DNA of 60,837 nt, the filler included, from Stramenopiles sp. TOSAG23-6 (taxonomy: Eukaryota), in assembly GCA_900128565.1 (NCBI GenBank). It is 3 parts of 3 records of this genome, joined end to end, with 100 filler letters (N's around TTAATTAATTAA, not from the genome) between each part and the next. Parts side by side here need not be neighbours in the genome. Positions count along the whole stretch, not along the records: positions 1 to 20,485 come from LT636037.1; 2 more parts are not named here. The stretch is one strand, 5' to 3'. Below, one piece after another: positions 5,601 through 40,332 of this stretch (the first letter of the stretch is position 1; every line of letters starts with the position of its first letter). The notes below the pieces were generated by a model, which did not search any database, was not told where the DNA came from, and saw only the letters and a list, made by a program, of their open reading frames with translations. Made by a program: the position numbers and the translations under genes.

Positions 5601-8600
5601 TTGTGAATTTCTTGTGAAGTATTTCTTTTTGTTCTTCTAAATGTGGCTCTTCTTGTCTTACTACAGCAGCCATGAGTTGTTCTTCGAGGCCTTCACTAGT
5701 GACAATGCAATTAATTACTGTACATTGTGCAGTAACCTCGGGCTGGAAATGAGGATTAGATCGTTTAGTCTGCAAATACAAACGAAAGTCTTTATCATAC
5801 AATACATTATCAGATGAAGTTTCTCCCATGCTGATGTATAAATTGCGACCTTTACGATAAAAGCTTCTTTGCAGTACAGGAGTCATAGCTAAATCTATTT
5901 GATCCTCGACACCCTCAATGATGACAGTTGTACCATTGCTGATACAAGTAGTAAGCTTACTCAACCAACGTTTCTGTGTGAATTGAAGTAATACATGTGT
6001 ACCTCTATTCTTCAACCACGAAATCCCTTGCATTTGTGGATCAATGAGCAGCGGCCACCTCTGGCAATTAGTAATGATTGCACCATTTTGAAGACTCATT
6101 TGATCCGCTTTGAGTCCCTGTTGTGACCACTCAGCACGCACTGCTGCGGTTGATAAAATATTCACTGGAGAAATATTTTCTGTCAATGGAATATCCCTTG
6201 ACAATAAATCAGGCAACCATTTCTGTTTCAAAAGAATTTCTCTGAACGGACCATCAAATGCACCAATATACGATACAAAGGCTGCTCCTAATATACAATC
6301 ACCAACCAGAGATAATGCCGACTGCTTCAAATTCTCAACATCTTTACTCCATCGATCTTTCTCATCGGATAAACCCGATGTAAGCCTAGTGGCGAGTGAA
6401 AGGCGGTCTTTACATCGTTTAGCAGCTGATTCAACTTCCGCTTTATTCAGTGTCGCCCTTAGAAACAAATCTTTTAGTTTCTCAAGTTTGAGATTTACAT
6501 CACTTACTTGATTTTTTGCCATATTTAGATCGCGGTCTGCTTTGCGCTTCTTTTCCTGTGCAGATTTCAGTTCATTCATTAGAGGCTTTACGTTTTTATA
6601 TATTTCATGAAATTTTACAATATTAACAACCCAGTTACATAAGTTTGCAGCCGCTTCTGATTTCTTCTTCATCTTTCCTGGTGTAAAATCTTGATGAGAC
6701 ACAATAGGCATTAACTTATTAAGTATAACTTGAGGAATACTATCGCCAGAGAATGCTTCAAGCTGTTTTTTGAATTTATCAACTTTGGCCATCATTTTCT
6801 TGGCCTTGTCCCAAGTCAGATCTTTTGTCTGTTGTGTTAACAACATCATAACTGCATTAGTAACTTGATCGACGCCTTCCGGGGGAGTTGCTAAAGACTT
6901 TAACTCTACCAACATTGGTTTCGAAAGACAATACACTGCCTTTTTGGCTGCATCCATTGCTGGTTTTGCTGCAGCAAGTTCTACAATAGATTTATTTTCA
7001 ATTTCACCTGCACGCCTCGCTTGCTCAGCAGCAACTGTTTTTATTGTGTCCATACTAGCTAATAATTCTGTTGCCTCATTTTTTTGTTGGCCCATATCTG
7101 TGAGTAAGACCTCAACTTTTTCCCGTTTTTCAGTGACAATATCCATATTCTTTCTCAGATCTTCGCGAAGAATTCTAACATTTTTTTCTGTTTCGGCTAA
7201 AGTATTTAACCCCACTGCTAATCTATGTTCTTGTGAACGAAGATTTTCACCTTTATCTGTGAGCAAAGCCGTGTAACTTTTTATTAATTCTAGAAAAGAA
7301 GATGGAGTAACATAGTTGTGACGACGTTGTTGGGTATAATAGACTTCACACATATCAGACACGGATAAGTGAACAGTGGCCATGTGATGTGCCATGTTTT
7401 CTCTCATATCACGAACTCGCATTTTTGCTTCTTCGCTCTTCGCATCTTTTTCTCCAAAATCAATTCGCTTCAAGAAAGAATTAGCGACACTAACAAGTGC
7501 ATTAGAAGACCATGGGTGAAACCAATCCATTGTTGTGCAACTGATTATACCCGGAAATTGTCGAGCCCTAGTGCGGAACTTTGGCCCCATTGGTGAAAAC
7601 CCGAGTACGACGTGAAGATTTGATCTTACTCTAGTAATGAAAAAGTTCAATAGAGACGGCCACGTATCTTTTACCATTGCAGCCTTCGCTGCTGGTCTTA
7701 AATTTGAGAATAAATCCTCCAACTCTTCCTTTGAAAACAAACCAGGAAAGTATCCCGAAGTTAGTATTCCATTTATAAGTACGAGAAATTTTTCGTCTGT
7801 TATTTGGCTATCAGTTATCAAAAAGACCAATGGCACAGCTGGTTTGATTGCTGCTTTGAAGTATATTTTTTTCAAATATTCTCGAAGATCAGCTTCTCCA
7901 AATTGAGCCGATTGACTTAATTGAAAAATTTTGTAACCACAAATAAAAGCTGACAATTTACAAAGAGATTGCTTTCCAGATCCACCAACACCTACAAGTA
8001 ATGCATTTCCGCGCGGTCTGCTTAGAATACGACAAATGCGAGTTATGTGTTCAGCAGCTTGTTGGAATAACACAATATCCATAATATTATTACGATCATT
8101 ATAATTACTCAATAGTTTCTTCAGCGAACTATCAAGTTCAATCCAGCCTGATTTACCAGATGAAATCGGTGCATACAACATCTTTTCCTTACTGCCTTGT
8201 TTTTTAATGAAAGATGTGAAAATAAGTGGTTCTGCTTGCAGGATTTCTTGATTCATTTCATCAAATTTTTGCCGTGTGTGCTCAACGAGTAAGAGATAAA
8301 ACTGTTTTGTATCATATTCATCAATCATACGATCAGAAAATACTCGGTAGCATTCGTGGAGATATAAACGCACAAAAGATGCTGGTGAAGATATATGTTT
8401 CGGTGTTGCCAGACACAACCCTTCTACAACGGATGAAATTTCTCTCATTGAAAAGTTATAATGAAATTTTACAGCAGAAGCTAAGAATCGAACTTGAACA
8501 CTTTTGACCAGCTTGAAGAGTGCACCCAAAATTACATTACCCATAGATCGAACGTCATTGTTTACATTATTCTCTGTCAGGGATATATCCAAAATTTGGC

Positions 8601-11600
8601 CATAAATCGACATCAAATCTGACTCTGCCGGCAACTCTGTCGCAATAATAGCAAAATGCCTTTGGAGTCTTGGGTTAACAAAGAATGACCCTGCTTTCGG
8701 ATTCATACCACACATAAACTGAATATTGACAATATTCTTTTTAAGTTTTAAATCATCTCTATCATACCAAGATTGATAATCCATCCACTGTCTTAGTAGG
8801 GCACAAGGTGTTTGTGTACCATACTTTTCAACTTGAGGCATATTGAGATCATCAATAAAGTATAACATTTGTTTCGAAGCTGGGGGTCCATACGTGCTGC
8901 CAGATCTTTTATCTAATTTTGATTCGAGAGTTCGCTGCAACGATAGTGAAGTTGTATAAAAGTTTAAATTTACCACAGAGGATATCATTGTATCAGATTT
9001 CAAACTTTCTAGATACTGTTTAGCAATAGTAGTCTTTCCAGTTCCAGATACACCAGCGAGCATTACGGGCTTTTGGCTACTACCTACAAGTAAAGAGAGT
9101 AAGTAGTTCAATCTACAATTGTCAACTGTTGGAACAACAATTTCACTGAATATTTCATCATTCAAATCACCAGATGGTGAAAAGTCAGGAACCTCACTTT
9201 TCCACTCACATACATTTGGAATATTATTTTCAACTTTGAAGAAAAAATCAAATATTGTTTCTGCACCTTGTCGTAGTTTGAATTTTGTGATTTTGTATTC
9301 ACTAAATGTCTCAAGCCAAAGTTCAGAAAATTTGAGCCTTTGATCAACCCCTTTATCTATTACAAGATTTCCACCAAATCCCCACATACAAGCAAATAAA
9401 AACATGCTTTCGAGTACATCCTTATTTATCATATCAAATGGATATGTTGCGAATAGTGCATCTAGAATGGAGCATAGTGTAGTGACCATATTAAGTTCTG
9501 AGAGGGCAACACATGGCTTCAGTTTGTTATCTTTTATCATCTTTAAGATTGGTAAAATATATCGATCACAGAGAATAGTTAAGTATTCCTTGTCATCATC
9601 GCATTTGAGTGAACTAATCCATCTTTCCATAAAAGGTAACCAACCAACGTCCTCCGCATTAATGTATAATATTCCTACTCTAGAAACCGTAGCTGGTGTT
9701 GCATTATTCATGTTTTCCGTTTCCAATATCAGTCGCATCGATGACGTGACAGGAATTCGTTCATTTGATACTAGTGTAAGTACTTTATTGTCATCCATTA
9801 CTGTATTCATTGATTCAATCCACAATGCATCAATGTCGCCATCTAGAATTACCCATTTATTACGTATGCTTTTTGAGGAATATGGTGTCTTACTCTTGGA
9901 CATATTTCGTATCACATTAGATAAAGCGCCATCCTCCCAATCTCCCGTGCGTGAAATATACCCATACAATTCATGTGATTGTACCGCTTTTGGATTAATC
10001 GTTTCGTATACACAATGCCGCACGTTTTTCTTTTTATTGTGTCCAAAAGCTGATGACACAGATACATCTACCTTTTTGTCGTCTTCATCAGAAGTAGCAT
10101 TAGGGTTGGGGTTTTTGTCGTCTTCATCAGAAGTAGCATGGCCAGCTAATCGGTCCAATATCTTAGCATATTTTTCTTGGTTAAAACAATGAGCCAAACA
10201 CTTCCATATTTCCGTTTTTCCTGACCCCGGTGGGCCCATAACTACAACAGAATGTCTAACTTTAAGTAACTCGTCTAATTGTCCAACTTTATCGAAGAAC
10301 TCAGGATCGGGGGTCAAACCTGTCTCATCACAACATTGTTGCACAGCTCGCATTAGTTCTGGATTTTCTTTTGCACTAGCATCTACCCGCGGGAAAATGT
10401 CGCTAACCAATCTTCTGAATATTGCAACGTCACAATTAGGTATTTTTGCGATATTGAAGTCACGCAAAGCTCTCATTAAGATGACATCTTCAGATACCTC
10501 ATTTTCCGCTTCGCGTTTTAATCGCCCAGCTACCTGTAAAATACATTTCACGGCTCGGAGGCCCCAATCATAATGATGCTGCTTAGATAAAAGCTGTTCT
10601 GCAAGATTATATAATGTCACAAATTTGATTGATAACTCTCTAGCTTTCTGGAAACCTTCAGCCATTAGCATATTTTCACAAATCGGAGCAAGATCTGGGC
10701 GAATCATAGCACATGATCGAAAATGAGTTTTTACATTCTCAGGTAGTTCTGTCCTTCCTTCGTAGCCTGGATTCATCGTTATAAAAAAACCAACAGTTGG
10801 AACGAGTTTTACTCGAGTTCCATCCGTAAAATCAAATCTACCAATTACAACAGGCGGGCGACCTTCGGGTACATTTGCATATGCCTGTTCTCTTGCTTTT
10901 GGGTTTGATAATAGTCTTATTGCATTTAGCACACATTGAATTTGTGTGGCCACTACAGAAAGAACCTCTATTGGGATTCTATTAAACTCATCAAAACAAC
11001 CCCAAGCACCACATTGACTAAGCCCTTTAAATATACCTCCTATCGATATGTAACTCATTTGATCAGAGCAATTAAATACCATACATGGTAAACCTAATGC
11101 TCTTGCTAAGTCTTTCGTAGTCTCAGTCTTTCCTGTACCAGCTGGACCTGCCGGAGCACCTCCAAGTGTAAGTTGTAGGGCCATAGTTAGCGTAATATAA
11201 CATCGATCAGTCAATGGAGTAATGACTAATCTACTACAATTGCCAATGTATTCAAAAAAGTAAAGTGTTTCATAGTCACATAAATTACATGTTACTTGTC
11301 GAGATTCCATACGGCAATAAATTCGCAATTGAGATTGCCAAAGAAAATCATTTGCGTTTTCAGGTTTATAATCACATATCTTTTGGATAATATCTCTATT
11401 GTGAACGTCTTGTGTGATTAAAGCAACAATCTTTGTTCTACTTTGAAGACTTAAATCACCTAAAACTAGTTTTATCAATGCTTGAAGTCTAGAATTACAA
11501 ATTTCTAAATAATTCGTTGCAGAATCATCTTGGCCAGCTTCTAATTCATCGAGCACAGATTCCGTTTCCATAGTCCAATATACTTGCGCCGCAAGTAGCA

Positions 11601-14600
11601 CAATTTGAGCAGGAAATTTAAATAGCCAGTCTTGTCTAGACATATCTACATCCCAAGAAGCTGCTTTTTCGTGAGATTTCATAAGCACATCTTTTAAAGT
11701 TATTTTACTCAAATCATCAAGACTTTTTAACCACGATTCTGGGGCACCGCTAAGCTTTAAAGAACGTTGTAGTTCTATTGTTTCGCGATCTTCTGGATCG
11801 CCATTAGATGATGCACCAAGTATTGCAGTTGCTACATACGACCGTGGTAGTCGTGCTAGTTCTTCTTCCATTTTTTTATTTTTTTCTCTTATTTCTTCTT
11901 CTCTGCGCTCCTCTGCTTCTTTTTCTTCAAGTAATGCCCTCTTTGTTTTTTTAGCCACTGGAACAACAGGCATACCTCTCTTTGCATTCATTTCTAATGT
12001 ACGTGCTGCTGCTGCAGCTTCTACTTCTGCCGCAAGAGCCGCCTCTTTTTCTTCAAAACCTGGTGGGCGTTCAATAGTAATATCCAGTAAAAGCCCAGCG
12101 ATACCCGTGAAACAAGCAGGTAGATGTTCAGCGACTCTCGAGGGATCGGATGCATTAGATAGAATTTCAAGGAGAACATCATTTGATAAGAAATAAAATC
12201 GTGGAAATTTGTTTTTTTTCACATCAAGATAATCTTCAAGTGCTTTTTCACACCCCTCAAGTTTTGCTAGCATGTCCTTTATAATTTGACACCTCCCTTC
12301 AACACGACAAGCTTGTACAATATTCGGCTCAGCTTTCCCATCTTCGCATAAAATTTTGAACTTTTTATCAATACTTTCAAATATGCTTGTCTGTTCAGGT
12401 AGTTGAGTTTGAATGTCGCCTGATGAAGTGAAGATAGGCTGAAGTGAAATCCACTTCATAGACAACTGATTCCATAGAATCATTGTAGTTGCTACATCAG
12501 CAAATACGTGTTGCCAATGCTCGATTTCTCCGCGGAAAAAGTCTGCATAACGACCCATACTAATCATACCTTGGAGTTGCATTTGATGTTCTTCTAAACA
12601 CTCTATTTGCTCAGTGGTTACATTTAGTGTAAAAACATTTGAACCTTTGTACTTTACAAACTCTAATTCTGCGACTTCCCATACTTGTTCGATATTCAGT
12701 AATTCGGAATCGATATTTTGTTCTTTTTTCGCGAGGTCGACAATTTCACAAACATCGTCAGATCGGCGATGTAATTCTAATTCCAATGCCTCAGAAAGTG
12801 TGTTCACCTTATTGCCGACTCTTCCAGTGACGGCGAAAAGACTTTGCCAATGTCGGTCCTGCATGGCATTAGTCTGTAAATCTTCAATTAGTGGCATTAA
12901 TTTTTCGAACTCATGAAGCTTCATGGAAACTTGTTTAAATACTTTCCAATCATTAACGTGTTTTGGTAGACCTTTTAGTTGTTCTTGTATGAAACTAACA
13001 ATATCAATAACTTCAGATGAATCTATATTTTCCCATCGAAGCACCGACCAGTTTGATGCAAAACATTTTACCATTTCAGAGATATCCCAACATTGTTTGA
13101 GTAAGCCAATATCCGTACGGCTTTGCTCCAACGCTGCAAAGGATGACACAGGAAGTTCGAATAAGTCAGCAAGCTCTAGCAATTCTTCAGATTGTTCTTC
13201 AAGTTCTAATATGTGTGTATGGTATGCATGTATGGTTTCATATGCGGTTTGTGCGGTACAAGTATCCGCACTTTCATCAAAGGGAGCTTTTTTGTACATT
13301 TCATTATTAAAATCATCTAATTGTGAAGAAAATATTTTCATTTTTCTCTCTAACTCGTCAGAAGCTCTATTTTGAATAGGTTGTATGATTTCTCTACGCT
13401 TATACATTGCATTGACAGTGTCATCCCACTCATGGGGAACTATCGTTAAGTACTCTTCTACCGGCATTGGTGGCCGCATTTCAGGCATACCATTTTCCCC
13501 TCTACTGGTAATACTTTCATCACAAAAATTTACACCATGTTTACTCAACAGTTCAACACAGTTTCGTAGTGGTTCAAACATTCTAGAGGTTTCTGCCATA
13601 GATCGCCTCACATTTCGAATATGTCTCATTGTGGCAACCAGTAACGGTTCATCGTCATCTGGTACATCTATGGCAAGTCCTCGGTGTGAACGCACCATAA
13701 AATCGCACATTGACTGAAGTTTGGTTAAAACGTAATCGTACAAATACGATGTGTAGTTCATGATCCATTTTGCAATAAATGTTGCCAATGCTTGCTTGAT
13801 TGGTTGTGCATTGACACGGAGGAAGTATACATCTCTCCGATCTTCTAGTTTTTCAATTTCTGAAGCTTTTGCTCGAAGCCCAATGATTCTTTCGTCGAAT
13901 TGTTCAAGATCAAGTAGTTTCATTACCAACTTTTCAGTATTTTTCGGTGTCGATATACTTTGAACATTTTCTGTATTCTGCAAAACTTCAAGGTTATTAA
14001 TGTCATTACTTTTATTAGGAGCTTCTTGGGGGTTATTGGAGTCATCAATTGTATCAGAATTATCGTCACTATCGCTGGCTTTATCATCTTCTTCAAATGC
14101 ACTTTTTTTCTTTTTCAAATATACTATATGTTCTTTAGTAGCAGATTTCAAAAACTCATTAAATAAATGTATTGAATCTGTCTCCCATAAATATTGATAC
14201 TTCTGAAATTTATCACGAAAATGATAACATTTGACTCGCGCCTGTTCAACACTATCAGAAATATCACAAATAAGATGCCTGATTCCCGGGTCTTGTGACA
14301 TTCCCTTAATAAACGAAGCATTTTCAACAGAACTGTCTAATCTTTTCACACGTTTCCCAATGACAAGGAACCCTTCTACCCATTCTAATACAATGTTTAG
14401 TATACCATTCCTTTCTTTATTACTATGGATACTTGGTAGAAAAGCAATATCATCACCGTATAGATCCATTTCTATTTCAAGTAGAGGATATTTTTCTTGG
14501 CTCAAGAGTTGTTGCGATGAAAGTTGATCCGATAAGTATTTCAGTGACACTGTAGCTAGCTTACACAAGCCAGAATAAACCACTGCATTGATAAAATCAA

Positions 14601-17567
14601 CATATGCTTTCCAGTCACCAAGGCCTGTACTTACCTTGAGTTTTTTATTCGTTTCTCGAATCAGAAAGTGTATCCTTTTCCCCCCTTTGCGAATGAATCC
14701 ATATCGTTGTAATAAATACACATCATATTCGTCATTAAACTCTGTGACAGTTGCTGGTTTATTGCCATGTTGAAAAAGAGGTTCTAATGACCACTCATCT
14801 AATATTTCTTGTGTCAGTCTCAAATTAGTTTTCATTTTGTGAACAACGTCATTGCACTCAGATGTTTGATCCATACTTTGTGAGATAAAGTCATCTATAG
14901 CAGCACTCTTCCAATTTAAAGTCACTAGACCGGCTTCTAATTCCCGATCTACCTTTGAAAGTGCTGCTGCAACAAGGGGTCTCTCTACTGGGAGCAATGT
15001 CTTCTGCATCATATTATACATGTTAGCAACAAGTTGCAAATTACTAGTTTGTCGGCGAAATATTTCGGCTTTTTGGTGTATTTGCATGGCAGCAGATGGT
15101 ACGCTAAGTCCTAGTAAGAGAAAATACTTAATTTCACGAAGTATTTCAACTAAAGCAGGATCAAAGTTTACAAACAAATTTTTCAAATTGCGTTTAACCC
15201 CGTTCCCCCCGTGGCCATATATGGAATCAGTATCTACGTCATCATCGTCACAAACATAATCTCCCCATCTAAGAAGAGTATTTTTCAACATTTTCTGTGA
15301 AGACGATGCTACATTTGTGCCCCAATTTGCAAGACATTTATTCTCAAACTCTGATATGGAAGCAACTAAATTAGAATACAACTTCACAAGATTTAGCGCT
15401 TCATCTCGATCTAAAAGCTTCCCTCGCAATTGCCGTAATTGTGTCATAGGTCGCTCTATTCTATTTAACAATCCTTTTGACCATGCAAGTGCCCCAGCAA
15501 TCGGTGGATAATTATTTTCCACTGGAGGGGAGAGACGTTTATCAAAGAAGATTGTATTAACTAAACGCAAATCTGCATGGTATGAGTTAAGTAGCTCAAT
15601 ATAATTTGTCTCCATTTCTGTTTCAATTACAGGTCGACTCAAAAGCATAGAAAAACATTGCAACAGTTTAAACTTACTCATAATTGTATTTGTATCTTCG
15701 AACGACTTAGTCAACACACAACCAAGACGTTGCTCTAACTCCTTTACAGTCGTGCGGAATATGTAGAATGTATCATCGAAGGAACCACCATCAACATTAA
15801 GTAAGTCGGACGAAGCGACAGCTGAACTTGATTGCTCTCCAGATTTTGTACTATTTATTTCTGATTGATTATCATTATTCGCTTGTTCAGAATCATTTGT
15901 GTTACGTCCGAAGAAAGCAGATACACTTGATTGGAAATCGAGGTATATTTGATGAACTGATGTGGATAAAGTGTTTCCTCTAGAACCACCAATTTGAATC
16001 TCAGCCAATTCACTAAATTGAGCAACCGCCTGTACCAAATCTAGGACGTCATGGCATCTTTCCAAGAAGTCATCAAGACGCGTGAATAAAGCAGAATTGT
16101 TCATGATCCATGGATTCCGTGGACATTCGACCATTGATCGCGCCTTATAAGCAAAATAATCCGATTTAAATGTTCCGCAAATTTTGATTGTTTTTTTAAT
16201 ATCATCAATAGCTTTATGTTCCATTCGATTCTCTAACATATCAAATAGATTTGTGACATCTAGGAATATAGTAGCTTTTTCAATAATCATGTTACATATT
16301 TGTTTCACTATGACAACCATACGAGGAGGAGTATTGTAACATCGTGAATTCTTCCATATTAAAAGTAAAACGTGAACAACAGGTCTAAAATATGATGATA
16401 ACTCAGAAAAGTTGGATGTTTCCATTATACTAAACCATTTCTTTAGTGGTGACAAAAATCTAGCATTATCATTTGCTTCGGCACGAGATTTAAACACAGA
16501 CTTACAAAGTTTGGCAAATGATGAGTTGTAAGTACTCTTTGCATCATCCATGAAACGTAGAACTTTACGTATTCGGCTACTTTGTAACTGAACAAATATG
16601 GAATTTAAGTTTACAGCTTTATCTCGCCAAAAGTATAATTCAGTGAGTGGGCCAGGATGTGGATTATCTAAATCATTAAATGCATCTTCAGGATCTAAAG
16701 AAACATGTATTGCGGATATATATATAGATTTATATAAACGTTAGGTACGGAATTTGCTGCAAAAAGAATAAATTTGAAATATATGATGAAAACGTACAAC
16801 AATTTGCATTAATTTTGTCCATCGAATGACACATCCTTCAACTAAGTGTAGCATTTCTTTTTTGTCCATTCCCTTCAATTTTTTCGGAGGTTCTTTTGAT
16901 AGTAAAAATCCTGAGTTAGATATGTTTTCATTATATGTATTAGAATTGGTTGAATTTTTATGAGATGGACTTGATTTATTTTGATCCATGTCATTCTTTT
17001 TTTGTATGTAGTTCTAGCTGTCACATCTCCTTGTACAGCATCTAGTTGCGGTGGAAGTGGAAGACGAGTTTCCCCCAAAGTTCGACCAACAGTGACTTGT
17101 AAATCACCAGCAAACTTATGTGTATCTTCCATTACATTTTTGGCAATCATACTTGACCATTCTTCTTGATTTGCGGTGTTTTGTAGTAAAGGTACGAAAA
17201 TTTCTTGAACTTGTAAATCTAAGAATTGAAGTGTGTCCATGTTTTGAACGTCTCCATATAATACGAAGTTCTCCATATCCTTTAGCGTCGATACTTCTTC
17301 ACCCAAAATTTTATAGAATAACATAACTTTACCTCTGAAAAATGTACTTACTGTATCAATGACCTTTAGGTGACCTTTGCCGTCATAATCCACAATTTGG
17401 ATAAAACGCTGCTCTGCGTCGTCTAAGAAAGATGTCATGCGGGACTGAAAAGAATCGTTCTTTATAAAAGAAATGAATTTTTCATCGCGCATATACTTGA
17501 AAGTGTGCCGCATACGCATCGCCATCCAAGCAACTCTTTCATCTCCAGGATAATCTGGAAATGACAT
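2674..17567 (-). CDS. Axonemal dynein heavy chain, outer-arm beta-like; segments 17567-~16998 (frame break), ~16997-16798, 16704-2674
   Basis: P-loops GPAGTGKT, GPPGSGKT, GVSGTGKT, GVGGSGKQ; RLVITPLTDRCY, WGCFDEFNRI, coiled-coil stalk. The N-terminal tail VIRWTK..DPE..PGPLTELYFW is restored by removing 16705-16797. Confidence 0.95.
16705..16797 (-). mobile_element. Introner-like GT-AT intron, 93 nt (dynein)
   Basis: ATT GTT|GTACGTTTTCATCAT...TTCCGTACCTAAC...GCAATACAT|GTT TCT TTA GAT CCT GAA; the next AG is 10 nt downstream and out of frame. Confidence 0.85.
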
Positions 17568-18358
17568 TTTGGGTGGACTTGCGTTGAGGATATGTGTGAA
17601 AAGGTAAAAGAAACTTATTTTTCGACGGTTGAATGAATTTTGTAACCGTCGTCAGTCATGCACGCGGTAAACGTAAAAGAGTCGATCAAATCTCGAATAT
17701 TTATGAGTCTTGATTCTACGTCGTAAGCTTTGAACAAAACACAAAATACCAAATTCATTTTCAAAAGACAAAAACTACGAGTAATAAAAGATATACTCAT
17801 GTGCTATTTTTCTAAAGAATTATTCTACGCACTCGTGAATCTCAATTTCTATATCTCTGCATACAAAAATATTGGAGTGGAAACAGGATAGGTGAAAATT
17901 GAAGAATTCGCCTCTGATAGATTAATAGAAATACTAGCTAGAACAACAAATCTCTCTAAAGTTTCAGCTACGCTTAGAACAACACATAGAGTAACTACAA
18001 TATATGCTAAGATAAATACATCCATTCATGGAATGAGTGGCTTAAGTGGGCAAGGGAAAATACAAGATGGAGCTTTGGTGAACTCTTTCCATAACTGAAG
18101 CAGCCATGGCGAGACGTATTACAAAACAAAGTCAACGACCCGATGTGTAGCGTATATAGTATACAATTATATATATAAATGTAATAAGCATCGAAGTATC
18201 AAATAAAAATGTTTTGTCGTGTTTCGTTTACAATTTAGATAAGTTAACCTTGGATTGTTAAGAAATATTTGATCTAAAGTTACAGCTTTCGACTATACAA
18301 TATGATGCAAGCAACACAACTGCAATATGAAAAAATCAACACCACCCGCTTTTCCTAT

Positions 18359-18442
18359 ACATTCTTGGCGGAGTGGTCTATCGCGTAACGTTCAGGTCGT
18401 TATCCAGTTCTCTGGGCATGGGTTCGAATCCCATAGAATGCA
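18359..18442 (+). tRNA. tRNA-Leu(CAG)
   Basis: D arm TGGCGGAGTGGTCTATCGCG; anticodon stem TAACG/CGTTA with loop TT-CAG-GT; long variable arm; T arm ATGGG-TTCGAAT-CCCAT; acceptor CATTCT/AGAATG; discriminator A; T runs downstream. Confidence 0.9.
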
Positions 18443-18756
18443 TTTACTTTTCTCAGTTTGTTCGTCTTATTTTTACAAAGTTTTGTGGTGCGTATGCGCG
18501 AGGGTTCGAAGCTCTCGAATAAAATTCATTTAGTTTTTTATATATTTTATTCGAAACTCCCAGGCCACATTAATTTAGTTATATATATATATATTATTCC
18601 TAAAATCCTCTACTATAGAACAAATCATCAATGACGGGGACATAAAACAAAAAAAGGCATCAAATAACATTTTAAATGTAGCATTCAAACAAAAAATATA
18701 TTTTCTGTATAGCATCAAAAATCTTCTTTATATACAAAGTATAATTATAAAATCTA

Positions 18757-20430
18757 TTAACCAAGACATTTATCAATATCCGCAGAAATTTTAGTAGATT
18801 GAGATTTTTTTTCTTCTCTTTGGGAGTAAAAATTATTGAAATCCAACCTAAACGCTAAACTCAGAAGATTTCCTTGGCCAGCAGAAAATTTTACCTCTGT
18901 ACGAAGTGACGTTAGCAGAGCTTGCATTGATGCCAAATATTCTTTAGAAATTGTTTTCAATTGAATTCCTGTAGATTTCACACGCCCACGCAATGATTGT
19001 AAGGCATTCATTGATGCTTCATCTTCTGCATCTGTGGTTCCCCATCCACCCTTCGACTGTTTCATGCGAGATCGTTGACGTGCTCGCATTATATATTGGG
19101 TGGTAGAGCTTACGCTAGTAAACAACTGATCTTCAACAAAACAAAATCGTAGAATTAGAGCAAATATTGTTTCAAAAATTTGTCTAGCTCCATCACCTTG
19201 CGTATTCAGTAATAATCTTGAAATTACCCGATTTAAGTAGATATCATGCGAATCAATGACAACATCTAGATTATCCGCCTCTTCAACTTTCACCATTAGA
19301 TCTCTGCAAGGTCCTTCTAATACCTCATGCATAATATAGGAGTGTAAATTGCTGACAAAATGAATCATTTGAGCCTTGAGCAGTCGGCAACGATGTAATA
19401 CTTTACCAATTGTAATTTGCTTAGTTATACCATCTTCTAAAGCATTCACAGTTTTCATTATCGCTGAGTGACGTTTGAAATTACATGAAAGTCTAAAATC
19501 AACCCTACGTAGCTTCCAGAGCCAATGAAAAATTGTAAGATACCTTGACATACGTATTGTGAAAAAATATTTCAAATAAAAAAACTAAAATTTGTTAGGT
19601 ACAAAATTTCGTACGAAAAAAAACAAATTCGAAATTAAAATGAAAACGTACACAATCTTGAGTAATGACTGTCGATAAAGGAGATGTTATTCGATAATGT
19701 AACGAAAATGTATCCCAACCAGTGTCACCTGGTGAAGGTGTTAAAAGATGGACGTCCAAAAGATCAAGTAATGTGGAGAAATATCTGGTACAGTTTGCAA
19801 TTTGTTAGACACAAAATGTAAAACAAAAAAAATAAAAAAAAATTAGATAAAACCCTAACTCTAATTAATGATAAAAACATACAAGAATATCAGGATCTTC
19901 AAATTGTGCATTAGACGAACGAATTGCAGCTTCAAGTTTAGATCCCAATGTATGCGCATAAAGTTGTGATGCTCTTCTTCTCAAGTCAGTTTCAATTAAA
20001 TCAATCAGACATTGAATAAAATCGCCTTGTCCCATATATTGTGAAAAAATATTTTTTTTTTGTAAAAAAAATTGTTAGGTACAAAATTTACTATGAAAAA
20101 AATTCATAAAGCATAATGAAAACGTACATGAGAAGGTACTTCTTTAATGCTAATATATGGTCTTTTAGTTTATACTGATCAAGAAATACTCTAACGAGTT
20201 TTTTATTGACTTTTTCTGAAGTTCGACAAATTGCATCTCTTAGATAAGGTAATTGATCAAATCCAAAAGTAGATTCTGAATCATTTAAAGAAGTACTATG
20301 AAGATTTTTCACATCTGTAGAATTATTCTCATAAAATATAATTTTTGCATTTTCTTGGAGAAATTTGTCAAGCTCATCGTCATTTTCAGAACACACTCTT
20401 AAAAAGTTTATGCTTTTTCCTAGGGTTAAT
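18757..20430 (-). CDS. TUBGCP3: Gamma-tubulin complex component 3 (GCP3/Spc98), 3' part; exons 20430-20128, 20033-19883, 19765-19652, 19551-18757
   Basis: Spliced translation gives GKSINFLR, ALKKYLLMGQGDFIQ, AIRSSNAQFEDPDILDLLDV, PGDTGWDTFSL, CMSRYLTIFHWLW, MIHFVSNLHSYIMHEVLE, LAFRLDFNNFY. Confidence 0.9.
19552..19651 (-). mobile_element. Introner-like intron ending in GT, 100 nt (GCP3)
   Basis: GAT TGT|GTACGTTTTCAT...TTCGTACGAAATTTTGTACCTAAC...CACAATACGT|ATG TCA AGG TAT. Confidence 0.85.
19766..19882 (-). mobile_element. Introner-like intron ending in TT, 117 nt, diverged (GCP3)
   Basis: ATT CTT|GTATGTTTTTATCAT...TTTTGTGTCTAAC...CCACATTACTT|GAT CTT TTG; the internal CAG 19 nt upstream is out of frame. 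Confidence 0.75.
20034..20127 (-). mobile_element. Introner-like GT-AT intron, 94 nt (GCP3)
   Basis: CTT CTC AT|GTACGTTTTCAT...TTTTGTACCTAAC...CACAATATAT|G GGA CAA GGC GAT restores YLLMGQGDF. Confidence 0.9.
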
Positions 20431-20485
20431 ATGTATTGTAAAAAAAATTAAATTCGAAATTTGTTAGGTACAAAATTTCGTACGA
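20431..20485 (-). mobile_element. Introner-like intron, 3' part (GCP3)
   Basis: TCGTACGAAATTTTGTACCTAAC...ACAATACAT|A TTA ACC CTA GGA AAA AGC ATA AAC; truncated by the contig end. Confidence 0.85.
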
Positions 20486-20585
20486 NNNNNNNNNNNNNNN
20501 NNNNNNNNNNNNNNNNNNNNNNNNNNNNNTTAATTAATTAANNNNNNNNNNNNNNNNNNNNNNNNNNNNNNNNNNNNNNNNNNNN
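20486..20585. other. Artificial contig linker
   Basis: 100 nt: N run, TTAATTAATTAA (stops in all six frames), N run. Confidence 0.97.
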
Positions 20586-20640
20586 TCGTACGAAATTTTG
20601 TACCTAACAAATTTCGAATTTAATTTTTTTTACAATACAT
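20586..20640 (+). mobile_element. Introner-like intron, 3' part (ZW10)
   Basis: TCGTACGAAATTTTGTACCTAAC...ACAATACAT|G TCT CAC; identical to the reverse complement of 20431-20485. Confidence 0.85.
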
Positions 20641-24823: not shown

Positions 24824-27015
24824 ATGATTCCGACATCCACTCAAGTTGACGAGAGTGTGATTTTAAATCGGAGCGTTGACAAAGTATGGTGTCTTGTTCG
24901 AAAATTAGATTTTGCTACGTTATTTCCTGGTTTGGTATCAAAAAGCGTTAGAAACAATGACAAGGTCAACTCAAATGTTATCGTAACTTTTGTTGACGGA
25001 ACAATCTGGGAAATTCGTATGACAGGCATGAATGATTTATCACATAGTGTAAGTTGGGAGCTAGTTTCTGCGAATCCACCCACGTCATATTTGTCCCGTG
25101 TTGATACTATCTCTGTGCAACGCGTTACTGCGAAGTCATTGGAGTCTTCTTTTCTCAAGTGGTCGACGACGTTCTCGTCTGATTCAGGCGTATCTGTTAT
25201 ACAAGATTGCAAGCTAAAGAAACGCGAAGCCCTACAAAAGCTGCGTTTACTTTTTAGTTGTGATATGCAATTATCAAATATTGATTTGATGGATGGTGCT
25301 GCGTGCGGCTTTGACATTGTTATTGTCTGCACTTCTAATACTGACATGGAAAACTTCTGGCAACTTCGTTTAAACCTTGCACGCGGAAGTATTATTCCAA
25401 TTAATACTATTGTTGTAGTAGTAACCGAGGATTGGGATGGTGGTGCAGGAAATGGACTAGGAACTTTGTATGCATTTCAAAAAGCTGTGAAAAAAGCTGA
25501 AACTGTAAATGGAGTAAATCTCAATACCTTATTGAGTGAAGGCGCTTCTGCAGCTTTGTACCACACTGCTGGCAAAGGTACCCGTCTCGCCCCTCTTCCT
25601 GGTAGTGAATGTAACAATAAACCTGCAGTAAAACTTCCTGGTCTTGTGCGTTTACAGGGAGTTACTACTAATATACCTACTAAAACCCCGGTCACAATAT
25701 TAGAGTCTGTTATTCGACAAACGGGAGTATGTATGTTTTGATTTTTTTTCAATTTCGAATTTATTTTTCGTACGAAATTTCGTACCTAACGCTTTTAATG
25801 TTTGAAATATTTTTTCATAATCCATATTCTACATCAAGACCTGGCAGACTTTCTGTATTTTGGGGTGATCAATTATTTATTCCATCAGTTAAAATGGATT
25901 ATACTCCAGTTCATCATGCAGATATTTTGTGTATGTTGGGACCAATGCCAAGTGCTAATGAGTGGAAATCTCGTGGTCTCTCTGCTTTTGGTCTGATTGC
26001 AGTCAATTCCAATGGCGATGTACAATTTCATGATGAATTTCAAATTCAAGTTTTTTTTTCGTACGAAATTCCGTACCTAACGATTTTTTTCATAAAATAT
26101 TTTTTCACAATACATGCAGCTCAAGTAGAAAAAGTAGATTATCGTACTGCAACAAACTTATTACAAAATATGGGAAAAGTTGTTTCTGTTGGTACCAGTC
26201 TTGGATCCTTTTCTGTATCGTTTGCGTTATTAAATGAGTTAATGATGGAATTTAAGAAGGAATTATCTACAAAAATTGGTAAATTAGATTCTGATCCTCA
26301 TTGGTGGATGCCTCTAACACTTCCACGCAGTGGTTATATAACGTTGATGCAACGAAAAGGAATGTCTAATGCTGGTGAACATTGGGACAGAATTGCAGTA
26401 ATGAAAAAACGTTTCATGAATAAAGAATTATTGAGTAATTCTCAACACTTTGGATTGTTTGGTGCGGTAGACGTTGGCTCTGAACCATTTTGGTGGGATT
26501 ATGGACAGCTGCATAGCTACATGAGTAATAACATAAAACTCACACAATGCAGTATTGAGTCAGATGCTATGAAAAAGTTTTTTGGTGTTGATAGTAGTGT
26601 AGGTGGTTCTGTTGAACTTATCTCGTCAAAATCTAAGGGCTTATCTCTCAACTCAGTTGTTGTGGACTCTACAGTAGGTAACTTAAATGTTGAAAATTGC
26701 GTTTTATTCAACGTCTCAGCAACTTCATTGCGAGGTAAAAATTGTCTTGTATATAATCTGTACGATTCTTCACTCGAAGGGCTTGATCTTCCAGATGGTA
26801 CCGTATTGTGTGACATTCCTATTCCAAATGAAAAGAGGTTTATACGTATGCAAAGTACGATAAGTGTCAATGCTGGAACAATTTGGAAGGAAATTGTTCA
26901 CGACAATGAAAAGTCTTTTGAAGAGATCTATTTGACAAATAACAATGTGTCTTTAGCAGATGCCGAAAAATTATGTGAAATAAAACGCAAGGCTATAAGG
27001 GCAAAGTTGATGTAA
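24824..27015 (+). CDS. Bet v1/polyketide-cyclase-like domain fused to a nucleotidyltransferase-like domain; exons 24824-25730, 25826-26019, 26116-27015
   Basis: N-terminal ~145 aa SRPBCC-like pattern (ESVILNRSVDKVW...WELVSANPP...FLKWSTTFSSD), then GAGNGLGTLYAF, HTAGKGTRLAPL..NNKP, spliced QTGVYSTSRPGRLSVFWGDQ and GDAAQVEKV. Confidence 0.7.
25731..25825 (+). mobile_element. Introner-like GT-AT intron, 95 nt
   Basis: GGA GTA T|GTATGTTTTG...TTTCGTACGAAATTTCGTACCTAAC...CATAATCCAT|AT TCT ACA; joins ORFs 24803 and 25729 in frame. Confidence 0.88.
26020..26115 (+). mobile_element. Introner-like GT-AT intron, 96 nt, in frame and stop-free
   Basis: GGC GAT|GTACAATTTCATGATG...TTCGTACGAAATTCCGTACCTAAC...CACAATACAT|GCA GCT CAA. 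Confidence 0.85.
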
Positions 27016-27761: not shown

Positions 27762-28099
27762 TGTGGGTGGGAAAAGTAATAATAAAATTAGTCGCAGACA
27801 ACACAAGCGCACCAATACACAGAGGTGAATCAAGACGATCAAGTCAGAGTCTCAGAGACTGACCGGTTTCGCAAATTTGTGACACGTGGCATTACAAAGG
27901 AAAAAGGTCAACTACTACAAATAGCAAAAAGAGGTGATCAGGACTGAGGAGGTAGTATATTCTAACAAATTGAAATTTTGAGATTCATTGAATTTTATCG
28001 AAAAGAGTCAACAACTCGCTTTTCAGTGAGCATTGTGAGAAACTACTCATCAAAAGATCAAAAACTACAACGCATTTTCCACGCTGAGAACAAAAAAGT

Positions 28100-29150
28100 A
28101 TGACAGAACTTCAAGATATTTCAACTGTACGATCTGAAGGCAATGTTGCTTTCAAGGGTGGTGAATATGCAAAGGCGCTAACGAAGTATACAAAAGCGCT
28201 TGAACTTGCTACCAACGACAAATTATTTGAAGACAGACACAAATTATTAAGCAACCGAGCTGCTACCCATATGAAATTGAGGCAATACAATGAAGCTTTA
28301 GCGGATGCAACAGCAGCAGTATTAGAAAAGCCTACATGGGTAAAAGCATACCATAGAAAAGCACTCGCCTACTTAGCTTTGGAAGAACCAGGAAATGCTC
28401 GCGAAGTGTATCTCGAATTTCAGAGATTAGCAGGAGATTCTGAAAATATATTTGTTAAAAAACAGTTGCAAAAGCTTCAAGATAAAGTGCCAATACAATC
28501 CGTAGATGAATTTCTCGACCTATTCAAGTCAATTCGTTCAGAGACACGTCTTCGATTATTTACATTAGCCTCTTTCTGGAATCGCTCAAAGCGTCATGAG
28601 CGTTTAGCTATATTAAAAAGAATTATGACTTTAATCGGTGGAGAGAGTGGACCATCACCAGCTGTGGAAAAATTTCGTTCGGAGGAAATGAATCGTATGT
28701 TTTATATGAATTTCTAATTTAATTGTTTTTTCATACGAAATTTCGTACCTAACGATTTTTTTTGAAATATTTTTTCACAATACATGTCTTCCTCTTGAAA
28801 TTTATAAAGACTTGACCTTGCCCTCAACTTGGTTAAAATGGTATCAGTTATGCACGAAATCTGAAAAGGTGACTATATTGGATATGATATGGCGTGAGTG
28901 TACTGCCGAAGAGCACAATTTCATCATTGTTGATCTCCAGGCATTTTTTAGTGTAACAGGGTCTACAAAAAAATCAGTTGTTCAAAGGAAAAACATGAAA
29001 TTGAAAAATCCAAAAGTTCTTTCAAAAAAAGAAGTTATCGTGCCATGCAGCAACCCTAACCCTAATCCAAAAGTTCTTTCAAAAAAAGAAGTTATCGTGC
29101 CATGCAGCAACCCTAAGGAGAAATCTAATAAAATTAACTCAAATAGATGA
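28100..29150 (+). CDS. TPR-repeat protein; exons 28100-28694, 28786-29150
   Basis: Three TPR motifs (EGNVAFKGGEYAKALTKYTKAL, LLSNRAATHMKL, WVKAYHRKALA); removing 28695-28785 joins the two ORFs in frame. Confidence 0.8.
28695..28785 (+). mobile_element. Introner-like GT-AT intron, 91 nt (TPR gene)
   Basis: AAT C|GTATGTTTTATATG...TTCATACGAAATTTCGTACCTAAC...CACAATACAT|GT CTT CCT. Confidence 0.85.
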
Positions 29151-29360
29151 TTGGAAGGGTTACAAAGAAATTTTAATTTGAGTTTTAATTTGAGTTTTGT
29201 GTAAGTTGAATAATTTTATAACAGTTTTCAACATAAAAACAAAGAAAATATTCCTGATAATTTTGTGTTGAAGCTCTCAAACGAAACAGATGATGCTGTA
29301 GTCTGTAATAGCGGAACTTCAAATAAATTTATAGTAAAGTAGCTATATATAGTATTGTTT

Positions 29361-29969
29361 CTATTGTACCACACAATTTTCTGACATGGCAGTGACAAGT
29401 GAATGACAACCATCACTAAATATTTTCTCCTGCTTTTCTTCATGTTTTTTGCATGGAACACTTTCTACACTCAAAATATTGCCAGTGCTGTTTTTGATTC
29501 TTTGATTTTTATTACAAAGGATATTTTCCCCAGCCTCGCGAGTTGAGTTATTCATATTATTGTTTGAAAATACAAGTTGTGTAGTTGAACTGTCTATAGT
29601 AGTTTGCCAGCGATGAAGCAGTTCTAATTCTTGGGACTTTGGTGAAAGTGAAGCAAGTGATATAGGAGAAGCCAAACGCTCACGTTTACGTACTCGGTGA
29701 ATTAGTCGCTCAAGTCGGGTTTTGCGTCTTATTTCTGCTTCTTCATCAAAAGTGGAATTTTCTACTTGTTCAAAAAGTTCCGTCTCACTAGATGCACAAT
29801 AATCAAAATCTTCTATCTCTCTATCAGAATATGTAGGTCTATCAATATCATGTTTCGGAGTTCCTCCAGCTATCACTCCCTGATTCTCATCTAAATCAGG
29901 CAATGTTTTCGTAATTGTTGGAACAATATGTGGAACCTGAATATTCCCTGAAACTTCTCGAAGTGCCAT
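29361..29969 (-). CDS. Hypothetical protein
   Basis: Open frame from MALREVSGNI in an otherwise empty slot; no recognised domain. Confidence 0.5.
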   Translation of the reverse strand: MALREVSGNIQVPHIVPTITKTLPDLDENQGVIAGGTPKHDIDRPTYSDREIEDFDYCASSETELFEQVENSTFDEEAEIRRKTRLERLIHRVRKRERLASPISLASLSPKSQELELLHRWQTTIDSSTTQLVFSNNNMNNSTREAGENILCNKNQRIKNSTGNILSVESVPCKKHEEKQEKIFSDGCHSLVTAMSENCVVQ

Positions 29970-30216
29970 TTTGATTGAGAAGTCAAATATAATAATATTA
30001 TTACGCAGGAATAGACTAGAAGAAATAAAAAAATTTGATGTGTGGTGCGGTACCCGGTACTGTACTTTAAAAAAAAAAATCAATCTGAAATCGCGCGGAT
30101 GATGGACACTTGACTTGATGATGATATTTTATCCAATATAATATAATATTGTAGAGAGAAGAAGAAGAAGAAGAAAGAGCTAAAAAAAGCAACCAATAAT
30201 AAGTGCTTCCTTTAAA

Positions 30217-32127
30217 ATGAGCATAGCTGAAATTGACCCTCCTATAGATTGTTGTTTCATATTTGATAGAAGCCTTTCTCCTGAAGGAGAAAATGCAAGC
30301 ATTTTGGAACAGTCTGCTCAGCTTTTGTTTTATACTCCCAAAGAGACACCTTTGAAGGACAAGTTAGGGCGAGTGAACCTTGCTGCAGGTTTTATAGATT
30401 TCCATCGAACTTTTGCCGACTCTTCTGCTTGTATTCACACGGTGGAAACGTCAAATCTTTGTTGGGGCTTTTTAAAATCTGAGCCTGGTGTCTGGCTTGT
30501 AATGGTTTTACAAAAAACTTATTTTNTTAGTATCAGTCAATTTAGTAAAAACTCTGGAAGACTTTCTTATCGTTCAGACAAAACTGCGGATAATTCTTTA
30601 AAATCATTCATTGGAGGGTTAGGAATATCAGTGGCGAAATCTAGTGAAAGCCACAGTAAAAAAAAATCGCTTAGGACTAGTTCTGCCAACAGTCGTCGTG
30701 GGGCTGTTCTTGCCAAATCTGATGATGCAACAGAAACCAGATTTTCTCCTCGAATTCTCAGTGCAGTTTTGAAAAGTTTATATTCACGTTACACCCTTCT
30801 CCATGGAAGTATAACATCAGCCGTTCATGTTCCAAATATATTAAATAGTCAAGTAATTGCTCTGCAACGTTTACGGAAAATCGTTCGGAAAGCTAAAGAA
30901 GCAAAAAGTGCAGTTCTATTAGCAACTGCGACGAAAACGGAACAGCGAACCAAGCAAATTGAAAACTTACCATCTAAGATTAAGGAATTAGAAATAGCCG
31001 AAATGGCATCACCTCTAATACCACTTCGAAGTAGTTTATTTTCTTCATTTTGTTCAAGTATCAATGATTTAGTCTTCCCATTGCATTTTGTGCATGGGCT
31101 TTCAACATGCAAATACTTTTCACTGAACAGAGTGACATATTTAGCATCACAATATCTCATTTATCAAATGAAAACAACATTTACAAGTATAAAACACTAC
31201 GCATTCTTGTATGACCTCCATTTAGTACATAATGACGTACCTGATGTGTTTTTTGGTACTGAAACTGACAGTGAAACGTATAATACTATGAATATTTTAT
31301 ATCATTATTTACACTCTCCATATTTAAAAAATTTAATACACCATGCCCAACAAATGTCATTACCGTTTCTATTAAATTCTAATGGACTTATTTACTCACA
31401 TCCGGTGTTCCATCGTGAGCTATGTTCACCCAGTAAAATACCAAAGTATACGGAACTTGGTAATTTATTGATTTATCAGGAATCTCGCATAACTATAGTA
31501 CTTATTGTTGATAAGATGATTGATTTTAAAGTAAATAATAGAAATAGTGTTGACTTTTGTAACCAAATTACAAATTTCCTTAGAAAAGATACGAAGCAGC
31601 TAAATTCTATGATTGTTGATGAATTAGATAGACAAAGTCATCAACATTCTGCTCCATTTTCATCATTTATATCAGCAAATTCAGCCAATGCTTCTTTAGC
31701 TCATCATGGATTTCAGTCTCCTGAACTTGTTTCATTGATGCCACACCCAAAGAAAGACATAACAAAAAAGCCAGCTTACATATACTTTAGTGGTAGCAAT
31801 TGTGCTATTAAGATGGTCGGGTTTTCAACTCCGAAAAGTAGAAAAATAGATAATGGCAAATTAGTAACAATATCAATGAAGGATTTAAATTTAGGTATAA
31901 AGCAGTGGCAGTTTGAAGGGTTTGATGCAATATTTAATGGAATAAGTGAAGATTTAGTAGGAACCTATATAAAGATTGAAGGTACAGGTTGGATTATTTT
32001 TCGAATGTGTGGTAGACGTTTGTTATATACAGTTTTTGGTAAAGATAGTAAAACCGAGTCTCTTTATAATGCCGAAAAACAACTAATTAATTTATGCCAG
32101 AATTGTTTTTTGAATATATTCTTGTAA
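30217..32127 (+). CDS. CCZ1: CCZ1-like longin-domain vacuolar fusion protein
   Basis: N-terminal CFIFDRSL.PEGE..LLFYTP....KLGRVNLAAGFIDFHRTF..SEPGVWLVMV and C-terminal GWIIFRMCGRRLLY..F.NIFL. Confidence 0.75.
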   Translation: MSIAEIDPPIDCCFIFDRSLSPEGENASILEQSAQLLFYTPKETPLKDKLGRVNLAAGFIDFHRTFADSSACIHTVETSNLCWGFLKSEPGVWLVMVLQKTYFXSISQFSKNSGRLSYRSDKTADNSLKSFIGGLGISVAKSSESHSKKKSLRTSSANSRRGAVLAKSDDATETRFSPRILSAVLKSLYSRYTLLHGSITSAVHVPNILNSQVIALQRLRKIVRKAKEAKSAVLLATATKTEQRTKQIENLPSKIKELEIAEMASPLIPLRSSLFSSFCSSINDLVFPLHFVHGLSTCKYFSLNRVTYLASQYLIYQMKTTFTSIKHYAFLYDLHLVHNDVPDVFFGTETDSETYNTMNILYHYLHSPYLKNLIHHAQQMSLPFLLNSNGLIYSHPVFHRELCSPSKIPKYTELGNLLIYQESRITIVLIVDKMIDFKVNNRNSVDFCNQITNFLRKDTKQLNSMIVDELDRQSHQHSAPFSSFISANSANASLAHHGFQSPELVSLMPHPKKDITKKPAYIYFSGSNCAIKMVGFSTPKSRKIDNGKLVTISMKDLNLGIKQWQFEGFDAIFNGISEDLVGTYIKIEGTGWIIFRMCGRRLLYTVFGKDSKTESLYNAEKQLINLCQNCFLNIFL

Positions 32128-32329
32128 TAATATAAAAAAGTGAATGCTTGTATTGTAGGTTTAAAATTTAACAATCAAAAGTTGTATATCATTAGAGATT
32201 TTGAAGTAAATATATTTATTTCCATTGTGCAATTTTTATTTTCTATGTAAGAAACATTATCTGTACGTCTAATTAATAGTATAATTAAAAATATTATCAT
32301 GTCCTAAATTTCAATATTCATCATGAAGT

Positions 32330-33595: not shown

Positions 33596-34112
33596 TTTCT
33601 AGCAAGCCTTGTATATATTTATTAATTCTCTGTTGGGACTTTCAAGAAAAAGTAATTGGAGAAAATGAAATCTCTCTCAGAGTATCTTCTTCTATATTTA
33701 TCGAGGAAAAAAAACGTATCCTCTGGATTCCTCTCTCTCGAATTTCGAAATCTTCGATGGCGATAAGCAGGTTTGTAATTTTCACTGTCAAATTTGAATT
33801 TTTTCGAAAAGCAAATTTGAAAATTCATTTCCAGATTCCCAAATTTTGTTACAGAATTTTGTACCAATCGGCAATAATTCAAATCATTCAAATCTGGCCA
33901 TAAAGCCAATTCTTTCAATTCAAACAAAAAAGAAAGTGAAGAGAGAATTTCTTCAAAACGACATTCATAATTTCGTTCTTTCAGATTTGTCCAACAAATT
34001 TTCGCATTTGAAGCATTAGAAACTCAAATAGACAACAAAGTATCACTGTCGTTGATCCAGGTGGTTGAATTTGTTGTTTTTTGTGTTTGCATAACGATAG
34101 CTAATACTCAAT

Positions 34113-35867: not shown

Positions 35868-36006
35868 TAGTTGTTCTCTATGTGTAAAAGCTCGGGACAT
35901 TTTTATTGAGGCACTATTGACGATTTCAGTATTGAGTTTATAGTGAAAGAATAAAAATTGTATTTTACTTATTCCCACTCAGAACTAAACTTTTATTTAT
36001 TTATTA

Positions 36007-40283: not shown

Positions 40284-40332
40284 TATGGAAAAATATCTCG
40301 TAGGTAGAATGATAAATAATATATAACTTATC

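Follow-up and report, generated by a model that had tools for sequence, protein, structure and literature searches.

Genes in a 60,837-base window of the Stramenopiles sp. TOSAG23-6 genome (assembly GCA_900128565.1; the window is the whole stretch analysed, three contigs joined end to end, G+C 30-42%) are interrupted by one family of introns, 90-125 nucleotides (nt) in length and present at 27 loci. Judged by their sequences, these are introners: a repeated, high-copy family of mobile spliceosomal introns. The copies share one anatomy, they sit by preference at AT^G (the caret marks a junction), and their removal restores reading frames without a scar. I propose, with about an even chance of being right, that the introns have GT-AT boundaries and that the acceptor dinucleotide is a 2-nt duplication of the target site. 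If so, the acceptor would be derived from the host and would not be AG.

One intron family at 27 loci

Twenty-five of the loci were found by nhmmer (27 hits, E <=1e-6). The other two, 56570-56695 and the last 15 bases of the window, were recognised by eye. The hosts are unrelated genes: dynein, GCP (gamma-tubulin complex component), ZW10, TPR, RING, Vps16, and fumarase. In the list that follows, a pair such as TC/AT gives the end of the upstream exon and then the end of the intron.

2-53, minus strand: 5' part of a family intron, AT flank, fumarate hydratase gene, truncated by the window edge
16705-16797, minus: family intron in the dynein heavy chain gene, preceded by a first coding exon of 12 nt, mismatched TT/AT
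19552-19651, minus: family intron in the GCP gene, exon end GT, intron end GT, checked by the Pfam GCP_C_terminal profile
19766-19882, minus: most diverged family intron, exon end (C)TT, intron end (C)TT
20034-20127, minus: family intron AT/AT, interrupting the Met codon that immediately precedes the GQGDF motif of GCP
20425-20485, minus: GCP gene, family intron of which the contig end leaves the 3' half
20586-20640, plus: ZW10 gene, family intron of which the contig end leaves the 3' half
25731-25825, plus: family intron AT/AT
26020-26115, plus: family intron AT/AT, 96 nt, open in frame
28695-28785, plus: family intron in a TPR (TTC1-like) gene, TC/AT mismatch
35245-35346, plus: family intron AT/AT, within a Cys codon of a C3HC4 RING finger
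40876-40960, minus: Vps16, family intron with AT flank, of which the contig end leaves the 5' part
41530-41629, minus: family intron AT/AT, Vps16
41659-41760, minus: family intron TT/AT, Vps16, T for A at a synonymous third position
45687-45775, plus: family intron AT/AT, young copy, A not G at +1 (ATATGTTTT), family boundaries still fitting the frame
46045-46149, plus: family intron CT/AT, C for A at a synonymous third position
46362-46460, plus: family intron AT/AT
52842-52933, plus: family intron AT/AT
56570-56695, minus: diverged family-like intron AT/AT, missed by nhmmer
56816-56903, minus: family copy with ...ATAC changed to ...ATAG, frames fitting an AG 2 nt upstream of the family end
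58637-58731, plus: family intron AT/AT
58933-59102 (structure to 59124), plus: head-to-tail dimer of two copies, frame fitting an internal CAG acceptor at 59100-59102
59523-59621, plus: family intron AT/AT, young subfamily
59855-59967, plus: family intron AT/AT, young subfamily
60192-60400 (structure from 60187), plus: intron AT/AT, a tandem duplication into which 5 exon bases are drawn
60513-60613, plus: family intron AT/AT, young, family-type removal off by one base
60823-60837, plus: 5' end of a family intron, GT flank, truncated by the window edge

When aligned, the copies follow a single order: GTAYGTTTT, a variable T-rich stretch, a 16-nt palindrome (GTACGAAATTTYGTAC) that directly abuts the branch site CTAAC, a T-tract, CA(C/A)AATAC, and two final bases. 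Intron position +1 is G in 20 of 21 copies. The branch motif CTAAY is present in all 21, at a median distance of 36 nt from the 3' end (33-46 nt in most). The 5' motif GTAYGTTTT alone occurs 21 times in the window, where 2.2 occurrences are expected. Pairwise identity among copies has a median of 0.68 and a maximum of 0.93. Within a young subfamily identity is 85-93%, and all seven of its members are AT/AT.

The element is heavily repeated. In a DNA metagenome the contigs that match it have a summed depth of 27,829-42,188, against 5.6-11.4 for flanking single-copy bins, a sum that is not a copy number. A pattern made from the 16-base core found 117 loci in metagenome contigs, and BLAST of six window copies returned no full copy among them, only partial matches of the kind produced by chance. 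A 21-base pattern had no match in viral or genome contig collections.

Some copies have departed from the common plan. The second copy in the dimer at 58933-59124 begins with ATACG instead of GTACG, and its ATAC tail is now exonic. The structure at 60187-60400 is a tandem duplication of about 92 nt, comprising the last five exon bases (GCCAT) and the 5' part of the intron, with an unusual GTGCG donor in both units. This arrangement points to a local duplication, not a second transposition.

A palindromic 'dimer' at 20425-20640, which the original prediction had set aside, is not an element at all. The three contigs are joined by artificial linkers of 100 bases (N44 + TTAATTAATTAA + N44, at 20486-20585 and 40776-40875), and the 'dimer' is one linker with a contig end on each side. 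Each of these contigs ends within the 3' half of an intron, the one in GCP (minus strand), the other in ZW10 (plus strand). A family copy is interrupted at all three contig ends that abut family sequence, and GCP, ZW10, and Vps16 are incomplete at those points. The order of genes on either side of a linker is therefore no evidence that they are linked.

Several side observations concern the exons and the palindrome. The dynein heavy chain (2674-16809) is encoded by a single exon of 4,688 codons following its family intron, and the first coding exon is apparently only 12 nt long. Vps16 has a micro-exon of 29 nt (41630-41658), flanked by two family introns. The palindromic core, 16-18 nt resembling GGTACGAAATTTCGTACC with at most three mismatches, stands alone in three intergenic places (33848-33865, 42804-42821, and 51146-51163), each between divergently transcribed genes, where chance would supply 0.25 matches in the whole window. 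These isolated cores may be a promoter motif or the relic of decayed insertions.

Removal of the introns and the splice register

For the test of removal, a copy was taken to begin at the G of GTAYG and to end with the second base after ATAC. Cut out in this way, 19 of 22 copies leave the flanking exons in one frame, as the scarless removal claimed in the original prediction would have it, and three do not (56816-56903, 58933-59102, and 60513-60613). Protein sequence speaks to the exact boundaries as well. In GCP, the match to the Pfam profile GCP_C_terminal covers profile positions 80-111 before the intron at 19552-19651 and resumes at position 113 with residue 1 of the next exon. With 35245-35346 removed, a Cys codon is whole again and a C3HC4 RING finger regains its H-x2-C-x2-C spacing; with 41659-41760 removed, a Trp codon is re-formed where the Vps16 exons meet.

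One might still suppose that these are not introns but assembly artefacts, eliminated segments of DNA, or insertions in dead genes. Contigs do break inside copies, and the RNA evidence described below contains no spliced joint. However, independent DNA metagenome contigs bridge copies in place, exact removal alone restores the frames and three conserved domains, and each copy has a donor, a branch site, and a T-tract. I consider this view very improbable. Elimination of DNA at TA, as in ciliates, was also tried and rejected: six extra bases would remain and the RING spacing would be broken. As introns, the copies would be spliced in vivo.

There is a series of observations that weigh against the proposal, and they are given here and in the next section, where each belongs. 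Four sequencing runs, with coverage of the genes that is few-fold at most, showed no exon-exon joint for four introns in 16000-20485 among the joints listed; those listed link different copies of the repeat, and uncovered parts count neither for nor against splicing. RNA-library contigs at 16589-16779 and 19734-19966 are unspliced across an intron boundary, in a library that may hold DNA or pre-mRNA. The copy at 45687 has A at intron +1. Then there is the copy at 60513-60613, which is 92% identical to its nearest relative. Family-type removal yields an in-frame TAG, and to bring its exons into one frame the cut would have to take out 100 or 103 nt instead of 101, a discrepancy that is due either to an indel in the assembly or to an acceptor that has shifted.

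As a proxy for further copies, the read-through peptide of the 96-nt intron that is open in frame was sought among proteins; it gave no candidate in a word-based search and no hits in a full HMMER scan of 1.84 billion representatives.

Ordinary introns occur in the same window. Those of eIF1A and SF3b10 are canonical GT-AG introns with CTAAC branch sites, and the splicing machinery is therefore conventional. In the SF3b10 gene (51426-51535) the canonical intron has TACTAAC as its branch site, together with two AG acceptors that are both in frame and separated by 27 nt.

Where AT stands on both sides of a family intron, the GT-AT register and one displaced two bases to the left, AT-AC, yield the same mRNA. 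It is conceivable, then, that these are AT-AC introns, ATGTAY...ATAC, with a pair of boundaries known to be tolerated by the spliceosome, and that the downstream AT is exonic. The left-register intron ends in AC in 13 of 21 copies, and AT and AC are among the non-canonical ends accepted in the account of PMC12130899. Nonetheless, AT-AC splicing seems improbable, and I take GT-AT to be the likelier register because its donor, GTAYGT, equals the donors of the canonical introns in the window, because the terminal AT is better conserved than AC (the last base is T in 21 of 21 copies, preceded by A in 18 and, before those, by C in only 13), and because the 5' flank is more variable, deviating in 7 of 21 copies as against 3 of 21 for the 3' AT. 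Greater variation on the 5' side is to be expected if the 5' copy is exonic. An appeal to homologues at the TC/AT copy (28695), where the registers differ, passed three proteins, and no homologue settles the junction: one is 99% identical but short, and two are TTC1-like, with 38-39% identity, and not aligned there.

U12-type AT-AC introns have an ATATCC-type donor and a TCCTTAAC branch site near the 3' end. The family was rejected as a member of that class. Its 5' consensus, (AT)GTAYGTTTT, is not ATATCC-like, and its branch motif, CTAAC, is too distant, with the median of 36 nt given above; both facts also tell against the AT-AC register in general.

Target site and origin of the acceptor

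The upstream exon ends in AT at 17 of 25 visible 5' junctions and in T at 23 of 25. The original prediction had these two counts right but gave the number of junctions as 26, the 26th being an internal duplicate at 60284. The background frequency of the AT dinucleotide is 0.096, so that 17 or more of 25 has a binomial probability of 2e-12. The first base of the downstream exon is G in 13 of 21 cases (P = 9e-6). It follows that the preferred site is AT^G, and the preference for AT targets claimed earlier is strongly borne out.

Does the acceptor repeat the target? Two copies end in neither AT nor AG, and both were correctly read from the outset as repeating the end of the preceding exon. On the minus strand, the copy at 19552-19651 runs ..TGT^GTACGTTTT...CACAATAC-GT^ATG, and the copy at 19766-19882 runs ..CTT^GTATGTTTT...CACATTAC-TT^GAT. 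I used a covariation test after that described by Gozashti et al. (PMC9860276), comparing 5' with 3' positions within loci against shuffled pairs. At position -2, 20 pairs give 16 matches, and the 3' bases other than A match in 2 of 2 cases (permutation p = 0.010, exact 0.0105). These figures leave out 56903. With that locus included there are 21 pairs and 17 matches, against 12.4 expected (p = 0.0009). I do not add 56903, whose exon end is GG, to the two matching copies: the AG acceptor 2 nt upstream agrees with codon usage and with an ATG, and the locus is better read as a GT-AG intron. The same table of pairs shows no covariation at -3 or +1, and position -1, where every intron ends in T, carries no information. 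The covariation called for in the original prediction is seen, among the window's pairs, at -2 only.

I propose that the element integrates as DNA at an AT^G site within coding DNA, duplicating the 2-nt target. Each copy supplies a donor (GTAYGT), a CTAAC branch site just after the 16-nt palindrome, a T-rich tract, and a tail ending in ATAC. The pre-mRNA would be cut on the 5' side of the G of GTAYG and, at the other end, two bases beyond ATAC. Those two bases are AT in nearly every copy, GT in one, and TT in another, and the coding sequence would thereby be restored without a scar. Later, the exonic copy of the duplication would drift, while the intronic copy would be held by splicing. Both transposition at the DNA level and the 2-nt duplication are inferred from the copies as they now stand. 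Duplication of a 2-nt target is suggestively supported as the best single explanation of the acceptor dinucleotide.

A further step may be taken, more tentatively. The major spliceosome of this organism might have no need of AG, so that in thousands of introns the 3' splice site would be a duplicated NT, usually AT, placed by its fixed distance from CTAAC and by the ATAC tail. GT-AT introns would then dominate the introns of a free-living protist, beside normal GT-AG introns. I regard this as possible but would not wager on it.

The account of the acceptor has its difficulties. Just two copies are informative for duplication, and the idea of a duplicated NT serving as acceptor, although both non-AT acceptors do copy their exon end (p about 0.01), depends on those two. 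For one of them, 19766-19882, the 3' boundary is placed by family alignment and frame only, with no independent check; a CAG 19 nt upstream of its 3' end is out of frame. In 4 of the 20 pairs, exon end and intron end disagree. Two of these, 28695 (TC/AT) and 16797 (TT/AT), had been listed from the start as exceptions and are real, and 41760 (TT/AT) and 46045 (CT/AT) must be added. The mismatches at 41760 and 46045 are synonymous third-position changes from AT, and the one at 16797 requires a single non-synonymous change, at residue 4 of dynein. The one at 28695 would require two non-synonymous changes from AT.

Might the same introner do without duplication? It would be an element GTAYG...ATACAT that carries its own AT and inserts precisely after the AT of AT^G. 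One route would be a DNA mechanism that makes no staggered cut. The other, put forward for fungal introner-like elements, would begin with reverse splicing of the excised intron into mRNA and go on to reverse transcription and recombination. GT/GT and TT/TT would then be coincidences in old copies. A good deal fits. A flank common to all copies, or nearly so, cannot separate target-site duplication from target preference, a point made by Gozashti et al. in the text of PMC9860276. Even opposite exon ends of TC, TT, or CT, the intron still ends in AT. The GT/GT and TT/TT copies are indeed old, their nearest relatives being 83% and 65% identical, and their 3' changes could be drift. Yet the chance of both matches is about 0.01, and the mismatches resemble ordinary drift of an exonic AT, two of the four being synonymous. 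Moreover, most introner families outside the fungi are judged to be DNA-based in the survey of PMC9860276. An introner without duplication is a serious possibility, though I doubt it.

Features of the element as a transposon bear on the same choice. All 27 loci are genic and in the sense orientation, with no full intergenic or antisense copy in the window, as insertion without duplication of the target would allow. It should be said that placement in the sense direction could reflect selection, because the reverse complement lacks CTAAC and because about 85% of the window lies within open reading frames (ORFs) of at least 100 codons. No transposase domain was found among the 37 window ORFs scanned. 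The sequencing runs on 16000-20485 showed no empty site.

The terminal inverted repeats are negligible. The imperfect repeat reported earlier, ATGTAYGTTTT / AAAATACAT, holds for one subfamily. Inside the AT, 9 of 21 copies have no perfect inverted run at all, 1 has a run of a single nt, 6 have one of 3 nt, and 5 have one of 4 nt. The termini reach 5-6 nt only if the self-complementary AT is counted, whereas the criterion in PMC9860276, as given there, is 6 nt or more. The element had been called MITE-like (miniature inverted-repeat transposable element), and that label is not earned, because inverted repeats of 3-4 nt are too short. Nor does folding help. The z-scores of 19 folded copies lie between -3.1 and +1.6, mostly from -1.6 to +0.7, which is weak, and a hairpin model was dropped on that ground. 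About half of the 19 have a terminal stem of 5-6 base pairs.

Helitrons insert between A and T, end with 5' TC and 3' CTRR, and have a hairpin about 10-12 nt from the 3' end. A Helitron was considered and rejected: the family ends in GTAYG and ATAC(AT), and its palindrome lies just 5' of a branch site that is itself, in most copies, 33-46 nt from the 3' end. That such insertions lack a target-site duplication is described in PMC12130899.

Gene setting and known introners

The ORFs of the window encode ordinary eukaryotic proteins: dynein heavy chain, GCP, ZW10, RabGAP, and Vps16, and in addition RuvBL2, eIF1A, SF3b10, fumarate hydratase, and an FHA-RING protein. The best named matches of RuvBL2 are from the stramenopiles Hondaea, Aphanomyces, Saprolegnia, and Phytophthora, at 82-83% identity. 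The stretch is also present in seawater metagenomes. On these grounds the AT-rich host is taken to be a marine stramenopile, an assignment from best matches and not from a phylogeny. Between the GCP gene and the gene next to it there is a tRNA gene (18359-18442; Rfam, 48.4 bits).

Introner elements of Micromonas pusilla and Aureococcus anophagefferens were reportedly the subject of Huff et al. in 2016. Introns born from transposons, with one splice site taken from a duplicated target, are established for Micromonas, Aureococcus, Symbiodinium, and Chrysochromulina in the accounts of PMC9860276 and PMC11282704. According to the same two sources, the introners of Micromonas pusilla and Aureococcus anophagefferens are thousands of similar introns arising from a short non-autonomous element, as the present family appears to be. 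They carry one splice site, take the other from the duplicated target, and leave the length of the mRNA unchanged. As described there, however, they have target-site duplications of at least 3 base pairs, clear terminal inverted repeats, and GY-AG ends, whereas the present family has a 2-nt repeat, inverted termini of 3-4 nt, and an AT acceptor.

A non-AG acceptor obtained through target duplication has a parallel in the MITE-derived introns of the tunicate Fritillaria borealis, where an exonic TAC gives rise to an AC end (Henriet et al. 2019, as presented in the review PMC11282704). Those introns are removed by an adapted major spliceosome, according to the review and to bioRxiv 10.1101/2025.08.15.670264. 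By the same accounts Fritillaria introns differ from the present family in mostly starting with AG, without a GT donor, and 95% of the introns of this tunicate escape GT/AG. Here donor and branch site are canonical, GT-AG introns coexist with the family, and the host is a protist, not a tunicate.

Amoebophrya, where duplication likewise writes acceptors other than AG, offers a second parallel. Its introners, as PMC7789003 describes them, are also repeated and without a transposase, with direct repeats that overlap the exon/intron boundaries and variable acceptor dinucleotides. In Amoebophrya, though, the direct repeats are 3-5 nt, inverted repeats of 8-20 nt form a hairpin, there is no fixed donor, and U1 is reported as undetected. 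The present introns, all of one family, keep GT as their donor, have a repeat of 2 nt, and fold weakly. Also close are the fungal introner-like elements of PMC9860276: about 100 nt, genic, sense-only, and, in that description, with no terminal inverted repeat and no clear target-site duplication. Those elements end GT-AG, whereas the present family has an AT acceptor and a hint of a locus-specific repeat. What would set this family apart from the introners so far described, then, is the combination of a canonical donor and branch site, a 2-nt repeat with almost no inverted termini, and an end in AT. Neither this family nor any GT-AT introner of a stramenopile is reported in the literature searched; the supplementary tables of introner surveys, which were outside that search, may list it.

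Introners are the best-documented route to the gain of introns in mass. How one insertion acquires both splice sites, and how far the spliceosome can bend to accommodate it, are questions on which this family bears. If the proposal is true, the family would offer a clean natural system in which to study the choice of an acceptor without AG, in genes that also contain ordinary GT-AG introns. Non-canonical splice sites written by transposons, known from a tunicate and from a dinoflagellate that is a parasite, would then occur in a free-living stramenopile as well. And gene callers that assume GT-AG would mis-annotate most genes of such genomes.

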